IMG/VR virus record: IMGVR_UViG_3300033562_001863
Span: 1 to 59,489 of that record
Source: a virus
Taxonomy: Duplodnaviria > Caudoviricetes
Strand: one strand, 5' to 3'
Length of the DNA stretch: 59,489 bases
This document shows, piece by piece, positions 9,772-40,152 of this stretch; the stretch's first letter is position 1, and each line of letters begins with the position of its first letter. A program made the position numbers and the translations under genes. Under the pieces are notes generated by a model that was not told the DNA's origin, made no database searches, and was given only the letters and a program-made list of their open reading frames with translations.

Positions 9772-10764
9772 ATGAGAAAACTTGCTTCGATAAAAATAGT
9801 TTCCATAGTTCCTCATAACAACGCAGATAAACTTGAAATAGCAAAAATAGATGGTTGGCAATGTGTAGTTGGAAAGGGCGAGTTCAAAACTGGAGATAGG
9901 GCTGTTTATTTTGAAATCGATAGTATTCTTAATAAAGAAGATGAGAGATTTTCTTTTATGGAAGATAAAAAATATAGGGTAAGAACTATATCTCTTCGTG
10001 GTCAGATTTCTCAAGGTTTGGCCATGCCTATTTCAAAGTTTCCAGAGTTAAAAAGCTATACGATAAATGATGACGTTACAGAAATATTGAAAGTAGAAAA
10101 ATATGATCCTCCCTTACCAGTATGCTTAGGGGGAGAGCATCGATGTTATTTCCCAGGGATAGTTCCAAAAACAGATGAACCAAGAATACAGTTGTTCCCT
10201 AATATATTTGATGATTTCAAAGGAAAAGAAATATATATTTCCGTGAAGTGTGATGGAACCTCTGGCTCCTTTATAAATATAGATGGAGATTATCACGTTT
10301 GTGGAAGGTCTGTTTCCTTCAAAGAAAATGACGATAATACTTTCTGGAAGTTAAGCAAAAAATATAATCTAAAAGAAAAAATGCTTGCTTATGGCAACTA
10401 TGCTATTCAAGGCGAAGTGTGCGGCCCAAAAATACAGAAGAATAGGTTGAATTTAAAAGACCACGAACTGTTTGTATTCAATGTCTATGATATAGATAAT
10501 AAGAGATATTTTGATTTTGACGATTTTATGCATTTTTGTAATAGTTTAGAGCTTAAAACAGTCCCTATTATATTTAGAGGAGAGTTACCTTTTTCAACTA
10601 TAGAAGAAGGGTTGCTATATGCTGATGGGAAATATGAAGGGACTGATAATCTTCGAGAAGGTATTGTAATAAGAGCGACTAAAGGTTTTCATTCAAACGT
10701 AATAGGTGGTAGAAGTTCGTTCAAGATAATTTCTAATAAATATCTTCTTGAAGGCGGGGAATGA
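9772..10764 (+). CDS. ATP-dependent RNA ligase, DRB0094/Rnl5-like
   Basis: N-terminal RKLAS..ADKLE..DGWQCVV..YFEIDS module; KCDGTS, QGE, EGIV, SFK motifs. Confidence 0.85.
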   Translation: MRKLASIKIVSIVPHNNADKLEIAKIDGWQCVVGKGEFKTGDRAVYFEIDSILNKEDERFSFMEDKKYRVRTISLRGQISQGLAMPISKFPELKSYTINDDVTEILKVEKYDPPLPVCLGGEHRCYFPGIVPKTDEPRIQLFPNIFDDFKGKEIYISVKCDGTSGSFINIDGDYHVCGRSVSFKENDDNTFWKLSKKYNLKEKMLAYGNYAIQGEVCGPKIQKNRLNLKDHELFVFNVYDIDNKRYFDFDDFMHFCNSLELKTVPIIFRGELPFSTIEEGLLYADGKYEGTDNLREGIVIRATKGFHSNVIGGRSSFKIISNKYLLEGGE

Positions 10765-16431: not shown

Positions 16432-16502
16432 GTTCCCTTCGTCTATCGGTAGGACAACACATTCTCAGTGTGTAAAGATTGGTTCGACTCCAGTAGGGAA
16501 TA
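16432..16502 (+). tRNA. tRNA-Glu(CTC) copy 1
   Basis: Cloverleaf; anticodon arm ACACA-TTCTCAG-TGTGT. Confidence 0.85.
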
Positions 16503-27313: not shown

Positions 27314-27321
27314 TTTTATTT

Positions 27322-27392
27322 GTTCCCTTCGTCTATCGGTAGGACAGTTTGTTCTCAGCAAACAAAGATTGGTTCGACTCCAGTAGGGAATA
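27322..27392 (+). tRNA. tRNA-Glu(CTC) copy 2
   Basis: GTTTG-TTCTCAG-CAAAC. Confidence 0.85.
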
Positions 27393-27400
27393 TAGTTCAT

Positions 27401-27473
27401 TCTTCGGTAGCTCAGTTGGCAGAGCGTCTGGCTGTTAACCAGAATGTCGCAGGTTCAAGTCCTGCCCGGAGAG
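27401..27473 (+). tRNA. tRNA-Asn(GTT)
   Basis: Canonical cloverleaf. Confidence 0.9.
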
Positions 27474-27478
27474 CTAAA

Positions 27479-27727
27479 GTTTCTATCTAGTGTTTCTGTT
27501 CCATACAGCCAAAGTAGATCGACGTTTATGAGTAGGGGTAAGGAGTTATTGCGCCTTATCTTGAAAATAAGAATGGATGAAATGGTGTCGAGTTCAGGCA
27601 CAAAGGGAAACTCTTCTCTTGACTACTAAGAAGAGTGCGGCAAAAAGATTGAATGGAATGTTGGCAAACGGTGAAAGCTTATTGTCGATGTTTCAAACAA
27701 AACTTAAACGCAGGTAGGTAGTCAAAC
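27479..27727 (+). ncRNA. candidate structured RNA (ends pair)
   Basis: GTTT-CTATCTA / TAGGTAG..AAAC closing helix between tRNAs. Confidence 0.4.
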
Positions 27728-27729
27728 AA

Positions 27730-27800
27730 GTTCCCTTCGTCTATCGGTAGGACGCTCCCTTCTCAGGGGAGAAAGATTGGTTCGACTCCAGTAGGGAATA
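27730..27800 (+). tRNA. tRNA-Glu(CTC) copy 3
   Basis: CTCCC-TTCTCAG-GGGAG. Confidence 0.85.
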
Positions 27801-27807
27801 TATTTCT

Positions 27808-28151
27808 TTGGTGGCTTATAGAAAGAGGTTTAGCTCAACGTGCTACTGGTGATGTTGTTAAAATATGAAAATGATTTTAATAATGTTGCTTAGTTGCTAG
27901 GGCAAAACTCATTAGCTCGGCTTTTATTTTATTTTCGCCGTCTTGCTTTATTGTATTGCGAGATTAAGTAACAGTAAGACCCTGACCATAGGGTGACATG
28001 GCTCGCTAGGTTTGCGATAAGAAACTCCCTTGTTTTTTCGTTTAACTTTTTCTCTTGGGTTAAAAAGAAAAAGTAAAATAGTTTTATGTGCGCTGTGTTG
28101 CATATATAAAACTACTTATAGCCAGCTTGCAAACACAGGGCTGGCTACCAA
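27808..28151 (+). ncRNA. candidate structured RNA (ends pair)
   Basis: TTGGTGGCT/GGCTACCAA 9-bp closing stem bounded by tRNA-Glu copies 3 and 4. Confidence 0.45.
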
Positions 28152-28222
28152 GTTCCCTTCGTCTATCGGTAGGACAACACGTTCTCAGCGTGTAAAGATT
28201 GGTTCGACTCCAGTAGGGAATA
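28152..28222 (+). tRNA. tRNA-Glu(CTC) copy 4
   Basis: ACACG-TTCTCAG-CGTGT. Confidence 0.85.
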
Positions 28223-28249
28223 TACTTTCTTTTTTTAAGGAGGGTTGCT

Positions 28250-28426
28250 ATGAGTAGTGGAGAAAAGGAATGGCTTAAAGAAAGAGAAGCTTACGAAAAA
28301 GAACTGTATGAAGATTTCGAATCGCAAAATGCAAATGGCCCTGCTTTCTTGAGCAATGGAGAGTTTGTTCAGTATCTAATGTCCCGAATGTATCATGAAG
28401 GGCTTCCTTCAAAAGAACCAATGTAA
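28250..28426 (+). CDS. 58-aa hypothetical protein
   Basis: AGGAGG RBS; MSSGEKEWLKERE...; not in ORF track. Confidence 0.55.
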   Translation: MSSGEKEWLKEREAYEKELYEDFESQNANGPAFLSNGEFVQYLMSRMYHEGLPSKEPM

Positions 28427-28432
28427 AAGTCC

Positions 28433-28461
28433 TTGACTAAGTTTTTTGTTCAGTGTATAAT
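28433..28461 (+). promoter_or_regulatory. sigma70-type promoter
   Basis: TTGACT-N17-TATAAT. Confidence 0.75.
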
Positions 28462-28475
28462 ATAAGTAAGAGAAA

Positions 28476-28547
28476 GCGTTATTAGCTCAACAGTAGAGCA
28501 TTTGGCTTTTAACCAAAGGGCCGCAGGAGCGTCACCTGCATGACGCA
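28476..28547 (+). tRNA. tRNA-Lys(TTT), non-canonical D/T loops
   Basis: TTTGG-CTTTTAA-CCAAA; T-loop AGCGTCA. Confidence 0.75.
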
Positions 28548-28827
28548 TGAAAGTTTGTTATGAGAAGCGTTGAGTATGCCAACAAATCATAGAGTGAGTA
28601 TATCTTGCTGCTCCCTAATAAGGAATGGAAAAGTTGAAAGCAACTACATTTAAGTGCTGCTCTTCTGTTGTATCATAATAGGCATCCTCAACTTGCTATC
28701 GAGAGGAGAGCTTTAAACTTGTGGTGGAGAATGAGAGTTAGCTCCTTGTTAAGTTTTGAAAAAAACTTGTCTTGGAACGCTTTTGTTTTTTATTCATTAG
28801 CTAAGCTCAGGCGTAGATAGCATTCAA

Positions 28828-28898
28828 GTTCCCTTCGTCTATCGGTAGGACAGTTTGTTCTCAGCAAACAAAGATTGGTTCGACTCCAGTAGGGAATA
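28828..28898 (+). tRNA. tRNA-Glu(CTC) copy 5
   Basis: GTTTG-TTCTCAG-CAAAC. Confidence 0.85.
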
Positions 28899-28899
28899 T

Positions 28900-29211
28900 A
28901 GGCGTACTGTGGCTCATTGCTCACAGGCAAACAGCATTGGCGTAGCGAAGAGCTATACCAAGTTGCGCAAGTAGGTTTTGGTTAAGGGCTAAAAGCTGGT
29001 TGGGAGTAGTACAACTCTTGGGGCTTTAAAACAACCAGTAAAGCAAACTGTATAAGTCCCTGATTACAAATATGGTTATGTGATACAGTTTATGGAGGTA
29101 CTCAATCCTCCCCACATTAAGCAAGGTAGAGACGTTTATTTTGTGTGGTGCCTGAATAACTATTGCTTCACTCTGGCTAGCTGGTAACAAACTATCCCAG
29201 CCAGTACGCCT
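28900..29211 (+). ncRNA. candidate ~310-nt structured RNA
   Basis: Perfect AGGCGTACTG/CAGTACGCCT terminal stem bounded by tRNA-Glu copies 5 and 6. Confidence 0.55.
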
Positions 29212-29216
29212 TTTAA

Positions 29217-29287
29217 GTTCCCTTCGTCTATCGGTAGGACGGTTTGTTCTCAGCAAACAAAGATTGGTTCGACTCCAGTAGGGAATA
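29217..29287 (+). tRNA. tRNA-Glu(CTC) copy 6
   Basis: GTTTG-TTCTCAG-CAAAC. Confidence 0.85.
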
Positions 29288-29472
29288 ATAAGCCATTGGC
29301 CGCCCATTATTATCAGGGCGTGAGCTATTGGTTTTGATACGTTTGCTCAATTGCGTATCGCTGTTAAAAGCCGGTTTAATGCTGTTTTATTCCGTGGGTA
29401 ACTGCGGGTAGAATGATGTTCTATTGGCCTATAACAGTTGGGCTGTGCTATTAGAAATAATGGCACATTTAT

Positions 29473-36814: not shown

Positions 36815-37039
36815 AAGAAGTTATATTGTAAATATAAATGTATAGGGTTTTAAAACGAGGCAATACTTTCCCTTAAAAAAAGTATATTAACCCATACCAC
36901 TTGTCGCCTTGGCAAAATGTAAAAAAGTTTATACAGTAATACAAGTGGTATATTTTTATTTTTATTGGGTCGTTGGCCGAGAGGTTTAAGGCATCTGTCC
37001 TGAATTATCATTTTGTGTTTTTTCAGACAAGATAATAAT

Positions 37040-37756
37040 ATGAAAAAAACAAAATGGATATGCCCTAAATGCGGTTTTGAGATAAAAAATAGCCGTGAGA
37101 AGCATTTAAATTATTGTAAAGGATACGGCCCCAGGAGCAAGAGGCATAAGATAATAAGAGGCTCCAAAGAGTTTAGCGAAAAAGTTTCAGACGGATTAAA
37201 GAAAAAATATTTAGATGATCCAGATTTAAAAAATAGAGTTAGAAATGGCCTAAAAAAATCATTTTTAGAAGAAAAGTATGATGGTAAAGCAAAAACTGAA
37301 AAACTAGAAGTAGAAAGAAGATTAAAAATATCTCTGACTGCTAAGAAAAACAAGATTTCTGGAGGATTGAGAAAAGGATCAGGAAGAGGTAAAAAGGGAT
37401 GGTATAAAGGATTTTGGTGTGATTCGTCATGGGAACTAGCTTATGTAATATATTGTTTAGACCATAATATAAAATTTTCAAGAAATAACAAAAAATTTGA
37501 ATACATATGGGAAAAAGAAGTACATCATTATACTCCTGATTTTATTATGGAAGATGGACTTTATATTGAAATTAAAGGGTATTTGACTAAACAAGTAGAG
37601 GAAAAAATAAGGCAATTTAATTATCCAATAGAAATAATAGATAAAAATAAAATTATAAAATATGTGGATTATGTCAAAGATAAGTATGGTAAAGATTTTA
37701 TTGAATTATATGAAAATGGAAGAAATAACTGGGAGGGCGTACCAGTGCTGCTTTGA
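37040..37756 (+). CDS. putative homing endonuclease (PD-(D/E)xK, TnsA-like C-terminal domain)
   Basis: CPKCG Zn finger; DSSWE..Y, YTPDF, IEIKG; ATG 37040. Confidence 0.75.
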   Translation: MKKTKWICPKCGFEIKNSREKHLNYCKGYGPRSKRHKIIRGSKEFSEKVSDGLKKKYLDDPDLKNRVRNGLKKSFLEEKYDGKAKTEKLEVERRLKISLTAKKNKISGGLRKGSGRGKKGWYKGFWCDSSWELAYVIYCLDHNIKFSRNNKKFEYIWEKEVHHYTPDFIMEDGLYIEIKGYLTKQVEEKIRQFNYPIEIIDKNKIIKYVDYVKDKYGKDFIELYENGRNNWEGVPVLL

Positions 37757-37803
37757 ATACAGATAGTGGTGAAAGCCATGCGGTTCGAACCCGCATTCTT
37801 CCG
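37718..37803 (+). tRNA. nested tRNA-Ser(TGA)-like RNA
   Basis: GGAAGAA/TTCTTCC-G; loop TTTGAAT; variable hairpin TGGT-GAAA-GCCA; TGCGG-TTCGAAC-CCGCA. Confidence 0.6.
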
Positions 37804-37847
37804 GTTGAAAGGCACCCAGGGTTCAAATCCCTGATGGCCCGTTTTTT

Positions 37848-37919
37848 CTAGTTGTAGCTCAGTGGCAGAGCGGGGCGTTTGGGACGCTCAGGTCGAGATT
37901 TCAAAATTCTCCAACTAGA
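37848..37919 (+). tRNA. tRNA-Pro(TGG)
   Basis: GGGCG-TTTGGGA-CGCTC. Confidence 0.85.
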
Positions 37920-38112
37920 CTTTCTTTCTAGGCTCGGGCCACTGCCTGACCGTTTGGGGCGACCTTACGGAATAAACCAAAGTGTGGAAGTTGTGGTAAT
38001 AAGCTAGAGGTGAAGAACCAGTTACCGAGAAGGAAGTTCCCCTATAAGTGGGTAAAAGATCCCAAATTCATCAAAGGGCGGCGGGCAGCGTGATTGTCCA
38101 CCTATATTTCTA

Positions 38113-38199
38113 GGGTAGTTGGTCGAGTGGTTTAAGACACGACCCTGCTAAGGTCGGGCATTTGAAAAGGTGCCGAGGGTTCAAATCCCTCATTACCCG
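38113..38199 (+). tRNA. tRNA-Ser(GCT)
   Basis: CGACC-CTGCTAA-GGTCG; long variable arm. Confidence 0.9.
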
Positions 38200-38208
38200 T
38201 TTTTTCTT

Positions 38209-38280
38209 ACCAGCATACCCAAATGGTTAGGGGACGCTCTGCAAAAGCGTTAGATGTGGGTTCAAGTCCCATTGCTGGTT
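38209..38280 (+). tRNA. tRNA-Cys(GCA)
   Basis: ACGCT-CTGCAAA-AGCGT; U discriminator. Confidence 0.85.
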
Positions 38281-38282
38281 CT

Positions 38283-38368
38283 GTGGTTGTGGCAGAGCGG
38301 TCGAATGCGTCAGTTTGTGGAACTGATAGGTTAAATCCTCAACGTGGGTTCGAATCCCATCAATCACC
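38283..38368 (+). tRNA. tRNA-His(GTG) with long variable arm
   Basis: TCAGT-TTGTGGA-ACTGA; C discriminator. Confidence 0.8.
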
Positions 38369-38394
38369 TCGCCGATATATTGGAGAAAAATGAA

Positions 38395-38730
38395 GTGAAA
38401 TGTAATGCATGCTTAATACACGAAGAAGTGACGAAATCACTAAATCATTTAGTTCTATCCTCCGATAGGGTTTATCGCTTGCTCGGTATATCCAGCGATG
38501 ATATGGATTGGTATTATATACTAGAAGCTATGAATGGAAAAATGGAATACCATTCTTGTGTTGGCGATTTTGAAGATTTGTTTCCAATACTGCCAGAGCA
38601 AAGGTATAAAGAACTTAGTGATAGTTTTGAAATGAACAAAAAATACAATTTAATACAAAAAAAGAGAATGGATAACATTCTTCCTACAATGTTAGATAAA
38701 TGTTATTGCGAAAAAATGGGATATAAATAA
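38395..38730 (+). CDS. hypothetical protein
   Basis: GTG 38395 after GGAG; the track's start lies inside tRNA-His. Confidence 0.6.
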   Translation: MKCNACLIHEEVTKSLNHLVLSSDRVYRLLGISSDDMDWYYILEAMNGKMEYHSCVGDFEDLFPILPEQRYKELSDSFEMNKKYNLIQKKRMDNILPTMLDKCYCEKMGYK

Positions 38731-38745
38731 CATTAGAAAAAGTCA

Positions 38746-38774
38746 TTGACAAAGTTTTTTAGATATGGTAAAAT
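38746..38774 (+). promoter_or_regulatory. sigma70-type promoter
   Basis: TTGACA-N17-TAAAAT. Confidence 0.7.
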
Positions 38775-38793
38775 TAAAGTAAGGAAGAAGTTT

Positions 38794-38866
38794 AGGCACA
38801 TAGTTCAACTGGCAGAATAGTGGATTCCAAATCCATTGGTTGAGGGCTCAAATCCTTCTGTGCCTG
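38794..38866 (+). tRNA. tRNA-Trp(CCA)
   Basis: GTGGA-TTCCAAA-TCCAT. Confidence 0.85.
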
Positions 38867-39154
38867 TAAAAGGAAACCAAGGAAGTAGCCACCCCCCCCC
38901 TTATTAGGTTGAAGGCTTTCCTTCTAGAAAAAAAGCTATACACAGTGTGGGATAAAACACTGCTAACGGCGTATCTTCCTTGGTGTAAAAGTTAGGTTCA
39001 TTCCTAACCATTACTGGGTCTAATTTTTGTTGGTTTTTATGGCCTGAAATAGAAAAACCAAAGAGGTTAGGTTCTGGTTACACCTGATCCAAAGGGTAAA
39101 AAAGGTGTTCTTGAAAATACCAGCAGAAATGCTGATAATATATAAGTTCTTTGA

Positions 39155-39733: not shown

Positions 39734-40069
39734 TAATGAAGAAAGAAAAAATGCTTTTTATATTAGAATGGATATATAAATCTTTAACGTTCACTAGATA
39801 TAGAAATAGAGAACTAGAAAAAGATATTGAAGATCTAATAAGAGACATTAAAAAAGATACTAAAGATTGTTGAACACATTAAAAAGAATTTAGTGGGCGA
39901 GGCCGCAAGGAGGATTGGCGGCTGAATGTACGGGACTAAAGTGGCAATCTCGATGATATATAACGCCACCACCAGGCCGACGCTGGACACTTACAACACT
40001 GGCTGAAATAACGCCGCGAGATAGGGAAGTGCTATCCGCAACTCCTTGATGCGTGAAACGGGGATTTTT

Positions 40070-40151
40070 AGGAGCGTGGCAGACCGGGTAATGTCCCTAT
40101 CTTATAAGTAGTGTGCTCGAAAGAGAGTAGGTTCGATTCCTACCGCTCCTA
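40070..40151 (+). tRNA. tRNA-Ile(TAT) with long variable arm
   Basis: AGGAGCG/CGCTCCT; loop CTTATAA. Confidence 0.7.
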
Positions 40152-40152
40152 T

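Follow-up and report, generated by a model that had tools for sequence, protein, structure and literature searches.

The PD-(D/E)xK homing endonuclease I-Ssp6803I is encoded in a group I intron of a cyanobacterial tRNA-fMet gene, and the tRNA is restored by self-splicing. In other cases a replacement is supplied: mobile endonuclease open reading frames (ORFs) of fungal mitochondria carry a replacement 3' portion of the gene they invade, and integrative elements carry a replacement tRNA 3' end in attP. Homing endonucleases in phage tRNA clusters are known already from T4, whose free-standing enzyme SegB is encoded within the tRNA gene cluster and promotes inheritance of its own tRNA region (PMC2330249). 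In 'fractured genes', a gene is split by a free-standing homing endonuclease gene located between the halves of a split intein (PMC2677866). Finally, (8/4) tRNA-Ser and tRNA-His genes lying side by side in bacteriophage tRNA clusters were described along with allo-tRNAs (PMC5389517); a word search of the main text of that article finds neither 'endonuclease' nor 'mobile', and two passages containing 'transpos' tie allo-tRNAs to transposon-related genes and toxin-antitoxin systems. Here we describe a locus in a 59.5-kb piece (59,489 nucleotides [nt]; hereafter the window) of an uncultured virus genome, IMG/VR record IMGVR_UViG_3300033562_001863, in which a nuclease gene lies inside a tRNA-Ser gene and overlaps a second, complete tRNA-Ser.

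From the evidence presented below it is probable that a free-standing, homing-type PD-(D/E)xK endonuclease cassette has taken the place of the central part of a resident tRNA-Ser(UGA) gene and brings along a tRNA-Ser as substitute. A full-text literature search, with subscription journals and supplements outside its scope, returned no account in which a tRNA gene harbours both a nuclease gene and a replacement tRNA. Coordinates are those of the window and refer to the plus strand unless a relative's locus (L numbers) is named.

Anatomy of the interrupted tRNA-Ser locus

The outer halves, the ORF, the inner cloverleaf and the TGAAT repeat, all noticed in an earlier sequence-only reading of the window, were recovered at the positions given there. 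The 5' remnant of the outer, resident tRNA-Ser (36967-36993) was delimited by sequence, by profile and by ARAGORN with introns allowed. It comprises the acceptor strand GGGTCGT (36967-36973), the dinucleotide TG corresponding to U8/G9, a D arm with the stem GCC/GGC (36976-36992) and the A of position 26, and a profile of tRNA-Ser 5' halves matched this region of the window at E 0.011. It is followed by a vestigial anticodon-stem 5' strand, TCTGT (36994-36998), and the loop CCTGAAT (36999-37005), which together form the left junction of the cassette (36994-37005). The entire 5' half thus has a class II tRNA layout, GGGTCGT-TG-GCC-GAGAGGTTTAA-GGC-A-TCTGT-CCTGAAT (36967-37005), with C instead of the universal U at loop position 33. 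The 3' remnant (37804-37841) consists of the 3' part of the variable arm, the T arm CAGGG-TTCAAAT-CCCTG (37817-37833), the acceptor 3' strand ATGGCCC (37834-37840) and the discriminator G. The two outer acceptor strands, GGGTCGT and ATGGCCC, pair at 7/7 positions, including two G-U pairs. An anticodon 3' strand and a variable-arm 5' strand of its own are missing from the outer gene.

The cassette between these remnants is composed of the vestigial anticodon-arm piece, a short leader, the nuclease gene and, overlapping the last part of it with its 5' end, a complete tRNA-Ser. The leader (37006-37039; 34 nt) holds GATAATAAT where relatives have (T)ATAAATA, which may be a T4-type late promoter. 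A leader hairpin, in which the anticodon-loop vestige would pair with the start region (8 base pairs [bp] in L004, 6 bp in the window), was considered and dropped, as it is not general across loci. The nuclease gene (37040-37756; ATG at 37040, TGA at 37754-37756) encodes 238 amino acids with an N-terminal Cys-x2-Cys finger, and its final 13 codons and stop fall within the inner tRNA. Space outside the ORF amounts to 34 nt before and 47 nt after it.

The inner, cassette-borne gene (37718-37803) resembles tRNA-Ser(UGA), its anticodon TGA (37754-37756) being at the same time the stop codon of the ORF. Its acceptor strands GGAAGAA/TTCTTCC pair 7/7, the D stem is ACTGG/CCAGT, the loop TTTGAAT and the T arm TGCGG-TTCGAAC-CCGCA; TGAAT thereby occurs as a direct repeat at 37001-37005 and 37754-37758. 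When the inner sequence was folded alone, the minimum free energy structure was the cloverleaf (z = -2.2). Both its position and its odd, long D stem are the same as in the inner tRNAs of relatives, which were matched by Rfam in 8/14 loci.

Default ARAGORN called 22 tRNA genes in the window, neither the outer nor the inner tRNA being among them. With introns allowed, 36966-37842 was reported as a single tRNA with a 796-nt intron. The identity assigned to it, tRNA-Lys(ctt), is a program artefact resting on a weak CTGTC/GGTTG stem; the call does show the outer acceptor, D and T arms fitting together. In a batch run with introns allowed, the nuclease was spanned only in L065 and L031, and the window locus was not listed.

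The nuclease is of the PD-(D/E)xK type

The C-terminal domain of the nuclease is marked by the motif GWYKGFWCDSSWELA...Y.PDF...YIEIKG...KYGKDFI.LYE. Its catalytic core, P166-D167...E177-x-K179, is invariant in 27/27 aligned sequences, as in a PD-(D/E)xK nuclease. Since all 17 residues invariant in these 27 family members are present in the window copy (17/17, including D128, E132, P166, D167, E177 and K179), the gene looks intact. The length of the N-terminal zinc-finger region varies widely across the family, and strong variation of this kind is usual for homing endonucleases.

PHROG families annotated 'endonuclease' matched the nuclease at approximately 1e-7. When the family profile was compared with the Protein Data Bank (PDB), T7 endonuclease I was the sole relative (E 6e-4), aligned over PDF...E.K, and the same search gave no sequence match to I-Ssp6803I. 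An AlphaFold model reached a mean predicted local distance difference test score (pLDDT) of 81.9, with values above 94 over residues 120-225. The top Foldseek ranks of this model were occupied by Bax1, I-Bth0305I (rank 3), T7 endonuclease I and TnsA, all of the PD-(D/E)xK type.

The nuclease family is sporadic and associated with tRNA-Ser

A profile scan of IMG/VR identified 222 relatives of the nuclease. Eighty loci were fetched and seven more were added from a single-sequence scan; 67 loci with the C-terminus covered remained after dereplication, and 64 were used for counts of upstream motifs. The family, although large in IMG/VR, is nearly absent from deposited phage genomes. Only 10 of 50,697 GenBank phage records contain a relative, namely nine Lak genomes and one other metagenome-assembled genome of a huge phage, and all ten are unannotated metagenomic genomes. 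Lak megaphages are also the only deposited phages with DNA-level kinship to the window (approximately 68% identity over 343 nt of the nuclease gene). Scattered over diverse IMG/VR contigs and few GenBank records, the family has the sporadic distribution of free-standing homing endonucleases.

At 30/67 loci default ARAGORN placed the start of a tRNA between -25 and +45 nt of the conserved ..LYE C-terminus, and at 35 when a simple structural rule was applied. Twenty-four of the 30 tRNAs in cassette position are tRNA-Ser (16 UGA, four GGA, two AGA, one GCU, one CGA), as compared to 25/342 of the other tRNAs at the same loci. As the same layout recurs in independent phage contigs, the nested arrangement goes beyond chance. 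The stop of the ORF lies within the tRNA at 13/67 loci and coincides with the anticodon at 3/67 (L020, L033 and L035, the latter two being near-identical). The coincidence of stop and anticodon that had been singled out in the window is real, at 37754-37756, and deserves less weight than it was first given. Usually the Gly codon after LYE starts at tRNA position 1, and because of this conserved register an anticodon TGA comes to lie in frame 33 or 36 nt later, from which the stop on the anticodon follows. The feature would act as a back-stop.

Two cassette-borne tRNA-Ser(UGA) genes, L020 1440-1521 (53.3 bits) and L090 1886-1970 (47.2 bits), score as tRNA-Sec in Rfam because of their long D stems and an acceptor/T arrangement resembling the 8/4 type. 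Acceptor and T stem measure 8 bp and 4 bp in the tRNA of L020; in the inner tRNA of the window, an eighth acceptor pair would be an A-A mismatch.

Upstream of the ORF, most loci contain a piece of a tRNA-Ser 5' half that breaks off in the anticodon loop (...GTCTTGA|T...), and an A/T-rich leader comes next. Homologous vestiges (..GTCTTGAT..) were found upstream of the ORF in 21/64 relatives' loci, as against 1/64 in the reverse-complement control. Within 100 nt upstream of the ORF start, CTTGAT occurs at 21/64 loci (reverse complement 1/64), CTTGA at 27/64 (3/64) and ATAAATA at 22/64 (11/64). The complete 5' half, with acceptor and canonical D arm, is present in the window and in L004, L024, L032, L058, L065 and L085. 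In L014, L018, L027, L039, L045, L066 and L084 the acceptor is lost and the part from the D loop to CTTGA is kept.

Downstream, a T arm and acceptor remnant directly follows the inner tRNA in the window and in L015, L024, L040 and L065. The upstream acceptor pairs 7/7 with this remnant at three of the 35 loci with an inner tRNA: the window, L024 (AGCGAGT/ACTCGCT) and L065 (GGAAGAG/CTCTTCC). Such 7/7 pairing is also seen in L031 and L084, where no tRNA follows the ORF. In most relatives, the outer halves are truncated, decayed or absent.

Two further loci stand apart. In L031 (897-1900) a nuclease of the same family interrupts a class I tRNA (loop CTTAACC) and no inner tRNA is present; the anticodon 3' strand TGAGG of this tRNA overlaps the conserved LYE codons, and both of its helices, CCTCA/TGAGG and GGGAATA/TATTCTC, are fully complementary. 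In L040 a permuted (two-piece) gene for transfer-messenger RNA (tmRNA) is located directly upstream of the nuclease cassette (945-1151; Rfam, 89.9 bits).

Interrupted and uninterrupted alleles in related phages

The sequence-only reading had asked for a comparison with relatives that lack the ORF. Such alleles were found for L024 and L065, whereas none was found for the outer tRNA of the window. The outer half of L024 is shared by three contigs, two of which (L098 and L100) have an uninterrupted tRNA-Ser(GGA), and the same tRNA-Ser(CGA) lies downstream in all three. In a BLAST alignment, L024 has 747 nt, comprising the ORF and the inner tRNA, where the uninterrupted gene has 15 nt; the 15 nt replaced are the 3' part of the anticodon loop, the 3' strand of the stem and the 5' part of the variable arm.

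The 26-mer with which the outer half of L065 begins is found in seven IMG/VR contigs, i.e., its own, five with an uninterrupted tRNA-Ser(UGA) and one with a tRNA-Ser(GGA). Over 28 nt (T arm, acceptor and CCA), the 3' remnant of L065 shows no difference from four of the five UGA alleles. In L065 the stretch from position 26 to the T stem is taken up by a foreign anticodon-strand vestige (TTTGG-GTTGA) and, after it, by the ORF, the inner tRNA and a remainder of variable arm; its outer tRNA cannot be rebuilt from what the locus itself contains. The vestige is unlike the corresponding part of the uninterrupted allele and is therefore assigned to the cassette there. Presence and absence of the block are thus polymorphic among relatives (L024 versus L098 and L100; L065 versus L091-L095).

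A comparable exchange involves another nuclease. Where L006 has a canonical tRNA-Ser(UGA) (2088-2180), L005 (1596-2190) has an HNH endonuclease gene preceded by a tRNA-Ser(UGA) whose D arm is odd. L007 is in the same state as L005, and both otherwise match L006. This is a second nuclease type with the same layout, in which the element brings its own tRNA-Ser. Taken together, the allele comparisons show a mobile block, at the DNA level, that consists of a nuclease gene and a tRNA-Ser gene.

Proposed mechanism

The sequence-only reading had suggested a selfish endonuclease with tRNA-Ser as its target and a replacement tRNA of its own. This proposal gains support from the family-wide link to tRNA-Ser, the interrupted and uninterrupted alleles of relatives and the patchy distribution, along with the anatomy of the locus and the lack of a detectable ribozyme (see below). 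What we infer are the cleavage activity of the nuclease, its target, the functioning of the inner tRNA in the window phage and a cut by RNase P at the inner tRNA through which the nuclease mRNA would lose its stop codon. The nuclease would cut uninterrupted tRNA-Ser genes in the genomes of co-infecting phages. The break would then be repaired off the cassette-bearing genome, with conserved flanking tRNA-Ser sequences serving as homology, and the middle of the target, i.e., its anticodon and variable arms, would be exchanged for the cassette. The 5' acceptor and D arm of the target (in the window, 36967-36993) and its T arm and 3' acceptor (37804-37841) would persist as flanking remnants, and the tRNA-Ser of the cassette (37718-37803) would substitute for the destroyed gene. 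The odd D arm of cassette tRNAs may protect them from the nuclease. In a crude regular-expression test of this immunity, which misclassifies some genes, a canonical tRNA-Ser D arm was scored in 8/29 inner and 14/32 other tRNA-Ser. Processing of the inner tRNA by RNase P is predicted to truncate the nuclease mRNA.

Several observations weigh against this interpretation. Exact-pattern scans for the uninterrupted outer tRNA of the window gave no match in IMG/VR (0) or in JGI metagenomes (0); insertion into this particular gene is argued by analogy because no uninterrupted allele of it was found. The inner tRNA of the window looks weak as a replacement. Its anticodon stem, GCTGC/ACAGA, forms only 3/5 pairs; a 3-nt spacer follows the acceptor, and positions 32 and 38 are both U. 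ARAGORN reported it as tRNA-Ser(tga) (37717-37804) at the 80% threshold, which is below default, and with the Rfam tRNA model the inner cloverleaf stayed unmatched at E<=10, also in a scan limited to 151 nt. The Rfam matches of relatives' inner tRNAs, and the retention of the same mismatches in L078, favour the view that the inner tRNA may function in the window phage. As to the enzyme, the match to Pfam Phage_endo_I (29.0 bits, E 9.6e-7, 42 residues aligned) is below the cut-off of 29.1 bits, and the nuclease seems to have a related fold without being a member of this family, that of T7 endonuclease I. All Foldseek matches were weak, none of them reaching E<=0.001. Finally, both in the window and in L024, what the outer gene lacks is matched by a compatible stretch within the inner tRNA. 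Such interleaving would not simply be predicted by a one-step insertion, and the repeats at the two junctions (TGAAT, TGAAAG) and the clean interruption without inner tRNA in L031 fit such an insertion poorly as well. We read interleaving, junction repeats and L031 as products of recombination between homeologous tRNA sequences.

Alternative explanations

One alternative holds that the nuclease is a phage housekeeping enzyme, such as a junction resolvase resembling T7 endonuclease I, which shares an operon with tRNA-Ser genes, and that the half-tRNAs arose by unequal recombination among tandem tRNA-Ser paralogues and not by nuclease-driven homing. T7 endonuclease I is indeed the nearest sequence relative of solved structure, tRNA clusters offer many similar and recombinable Ser genes, and the architectures are diverse: the 3' remnant is lacking in L004 and L074, and a complete tRNA lies upstream of the ORF in L084. 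However, a core enzyme should be widespread and syntenic, which is difficult to reconcile with relatives in only ten of the GenBank phage records. In addition, related tRNA clusters differ exactly by the block of ORF plus tRNA, the position of the ORF is constant, its left side facing the CTTGA vestige and its C-terminus tRNA position 1, and the length of the zinc-finger region is as variable as in homing endonucleases. We consider this explanation unlikely.

The nesting itself might be functional, a notion to which we assign a similarly small likelihood. At the RNA level, acceptor, D and T pieces of the outer gene would fold as a tRNA-like frame around the nuclease message, an mRNA inside a tRNA comparable to tmRNA. 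RNase P and CCA-end processing would shape or stabilise this message, and excision of the inner tRNA would deprive the message of its stop codon and so throttle nuclease synthesis. In a milder version confined to DNA, the vestigial 5' half and the inner tRNA would be homology arms that travel with the element, the rebuilt D arm of the latter being its immunity allele; because every phage tRNA-Ser looks alike, the cassette could hop between unrelated phages.

According to a further explanation, the outer tRNA-Ser is a split gene whose transcript is either cut and religated, e.g., by a phage RNA ligase, or refolded onto the ACAGA strand of the inner tRNA, such that one locus would yield two serine tRNAs or switch between them. 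An Rnl2-type RNA ligase is encoded in the window (domain PF09414, 96.9 bits, 10225-10731, within an ORF for 330 amino acids at 9772-10764); enzymes of this type are common phage equipment, and RtcB is absent from the window fragment. The outer acceptor pairs 7/7, and ACAGA (37759-37763) is fully complementary to the outer TCTGT while the inner stem forms 3/5 pairs. L024 is interleaved likewise relative to its uninterrupted allele, and in L031 a class I tRNA is cleanly interrupted with both helices complementary. The perfect pairing of ACAGA with TCTGT, to which the sequence-only reading had drawn attention, is a weak hint at a shared strand: ACAGA is the usual 3' strand among cassette-borne tRNAs (L026, L029, L078), and L078 has the identical mismatched GCTGC/ACAGA stem without any outer halves, so the fit need not mean that the strand is shared.

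Moreover, two precise excisions would be needed in a split outer tRNA, one of approximately 750 nt and one of approximately 35 nt (variable arm). To our knowledge, bacteria have no protein tRNA-splicing endonuclease, and no ribozyme or intron family was matched in the window region or in 16 relatives' loci. C33 in place of U33 in the outer loop, the outer anticodon strand TTTGG of L065, which has no partner anywhere, and the loss of the outer acceptor in most relatives also speak against it. In an archaeal-type split tRNA, or one with a bulge-helix-bulge intron, the exons jointly make up a complete tRNA, whereas the outer 3' piece is devoid of the anticodon 3' and variable-arm 5' strands; a bulge-helix-bulge at the junctions and a splicing endonuclease would also be expected, and no search aimed at either was made. 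A protein-spliced or alternatively folding nested tRNA joined by phage RNA ligases, as envisaged in the sequence-only reading, thus finds no support, since strands of the outer tRNA are missing and the halves in relatives are truncated or absent. A split outer tRNA is regarded as very unlikely.

Still less credible is an assembly chimera in which two strains, or two tRNA-Ser loci, were misjoined at a common tRNA sequence. The Logan unitig graph breaks at 36963-36992, i.e., within the outer 5' half, where the left side is joined by a 30-nt unitig overlap, and a low-depth variant branch covers 36869-36992. Yet a Logan contig of 3,622 nt from the probable source sample matched 36963-39000 with 0 differences, extending from there across the ORF, inner tRNA and outer 3' piece into the downstream tRNAs, and the depths to the left and right of the break agree (16.3 and 14.1). 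As the Logan contig from the same sample is not independent evidence, it is the recurrence of the nested layout in unrelated contigs of other samples that argues for its being genuine. A joint 36997->37381 seen in one contig (shorter side 24 letters, 8 differences) was attributed to a related cassette from another genome in the same sample and not to a deletion allele. A search of sequencing runs for this phage listed none of RNA.

A group I or any other self-splicing intron was rejected: neither Intron_gpI nor a group II intron or small ribozyme family was matched by Rfam between 36500 and 38500 of the window at E<=10, and at the gathering threshold only tRNA, tRNA-Sec and tmRNA were matched in the 16 relatives' loci, which bears out the earlier remark that there is no room for a group I intron.

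Genome context and other unusual tRNA genes

The window belongs to a virus genome of which it represents an estimated 25% (completeness), uses the standard code, as judged from large open frames under translation table 11, and includes genes for a tail-sheath protein, a Dam-type methylase and an exonuclease. For the spacer that precedes the outer tRNA half (36869-36992) a minor variant exists, with 17 substitutions and several insertions or deletions. This variant has a depth of 5.1, as against 16.3, and stops at the same unitig boundary (36963-36992); a second strain may be present in the probable source sample.

Other tRNA genes of the window are unusual in their own right. Five dispersed tRNA-Glu(CUC)-like copies (27319-29306) have identical acceptor, D and T arms and a constant loop, TTCTCAG, while their anticodon stems vary by fully compensatory changes, e.g., GCTCCC/GGGAGA, AACACG/CGTGT and AGTTTG/CAAAC. 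A sixth tRNA-Glu(ctc) call (16432-16502) was outside this five-copy comparison. An 86-nt tRNA-His(GUG) (38283-38368) and an 84-nt tRNA-Ile(UAU) (40069-40152) each combine a Ser-like D arm with a long variable arm.

Comparison with known systems

If the proposed replacement of tRNA-Ser genes by a nuclease cassette is correct, it would explain the half-tRNAs, duplicated tRNA-Ser genes and tRNA-Ser genes with odd D arms in the tRNA clusters of huge phages, and the enzyme would be a tRNA-gene-specific PD-(D/E)xK nuclease with a conserved, universal target. Some 'intron-containing' or orphan tRNA calls in phages may then be scars of such cassettes, which calls for caution in annotation.

Like I-Ssp6803I, the window nuclease would be a homing enzyme of the PD-(D/E)xK type whose gene interrupts a tRNA gene in the anticodon loop. 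In contrast to that system no group I core was detected, and restoration, if any, would occur via a second tRNA gene. With the mobile ORFs of fungal mitochondria and the integrative elements, the cassette shares the destruction of target continuity, the supply of a copy and the displaced remnant left behind; those elements supply a terminal segment only, whereas here a whole tRNA is supplied and remnants lie on both sides.

As in fractured genes (PMC2677866), an inserted endonuclease gene physically splits the host gene. Rescue is achieved there on the protein level, by split inteins, whereas the gene interrupted here is an RNA gene, for which the cassette carries a duplicate. The long D stems and non-U8 cores of cassette tRNAs are reminiscent of the (8/4) tRNA-Ser and allo-tRNAs (PMC5389517), and the catalytic domain of the I-Bth0305I family (PMC3239194) is the third-ranking fold match of the window nuclease. 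The enzyme belongs neither to the family of SegB nor to that of the fractured-gene endonuclease. With SegB (PMC2330249) the locus has in common that a nuclease gene, free-standing and without an intron, is situated in the tRNA cluster of a phage. SegB, however, is a GIY-YIG enzyme encoded between tRNA genes, while the PD-(D/E)xK gene described here is located inside a tRNA-Ser gene, overlaps a second tRNA and brings a substitute tRNA with it.

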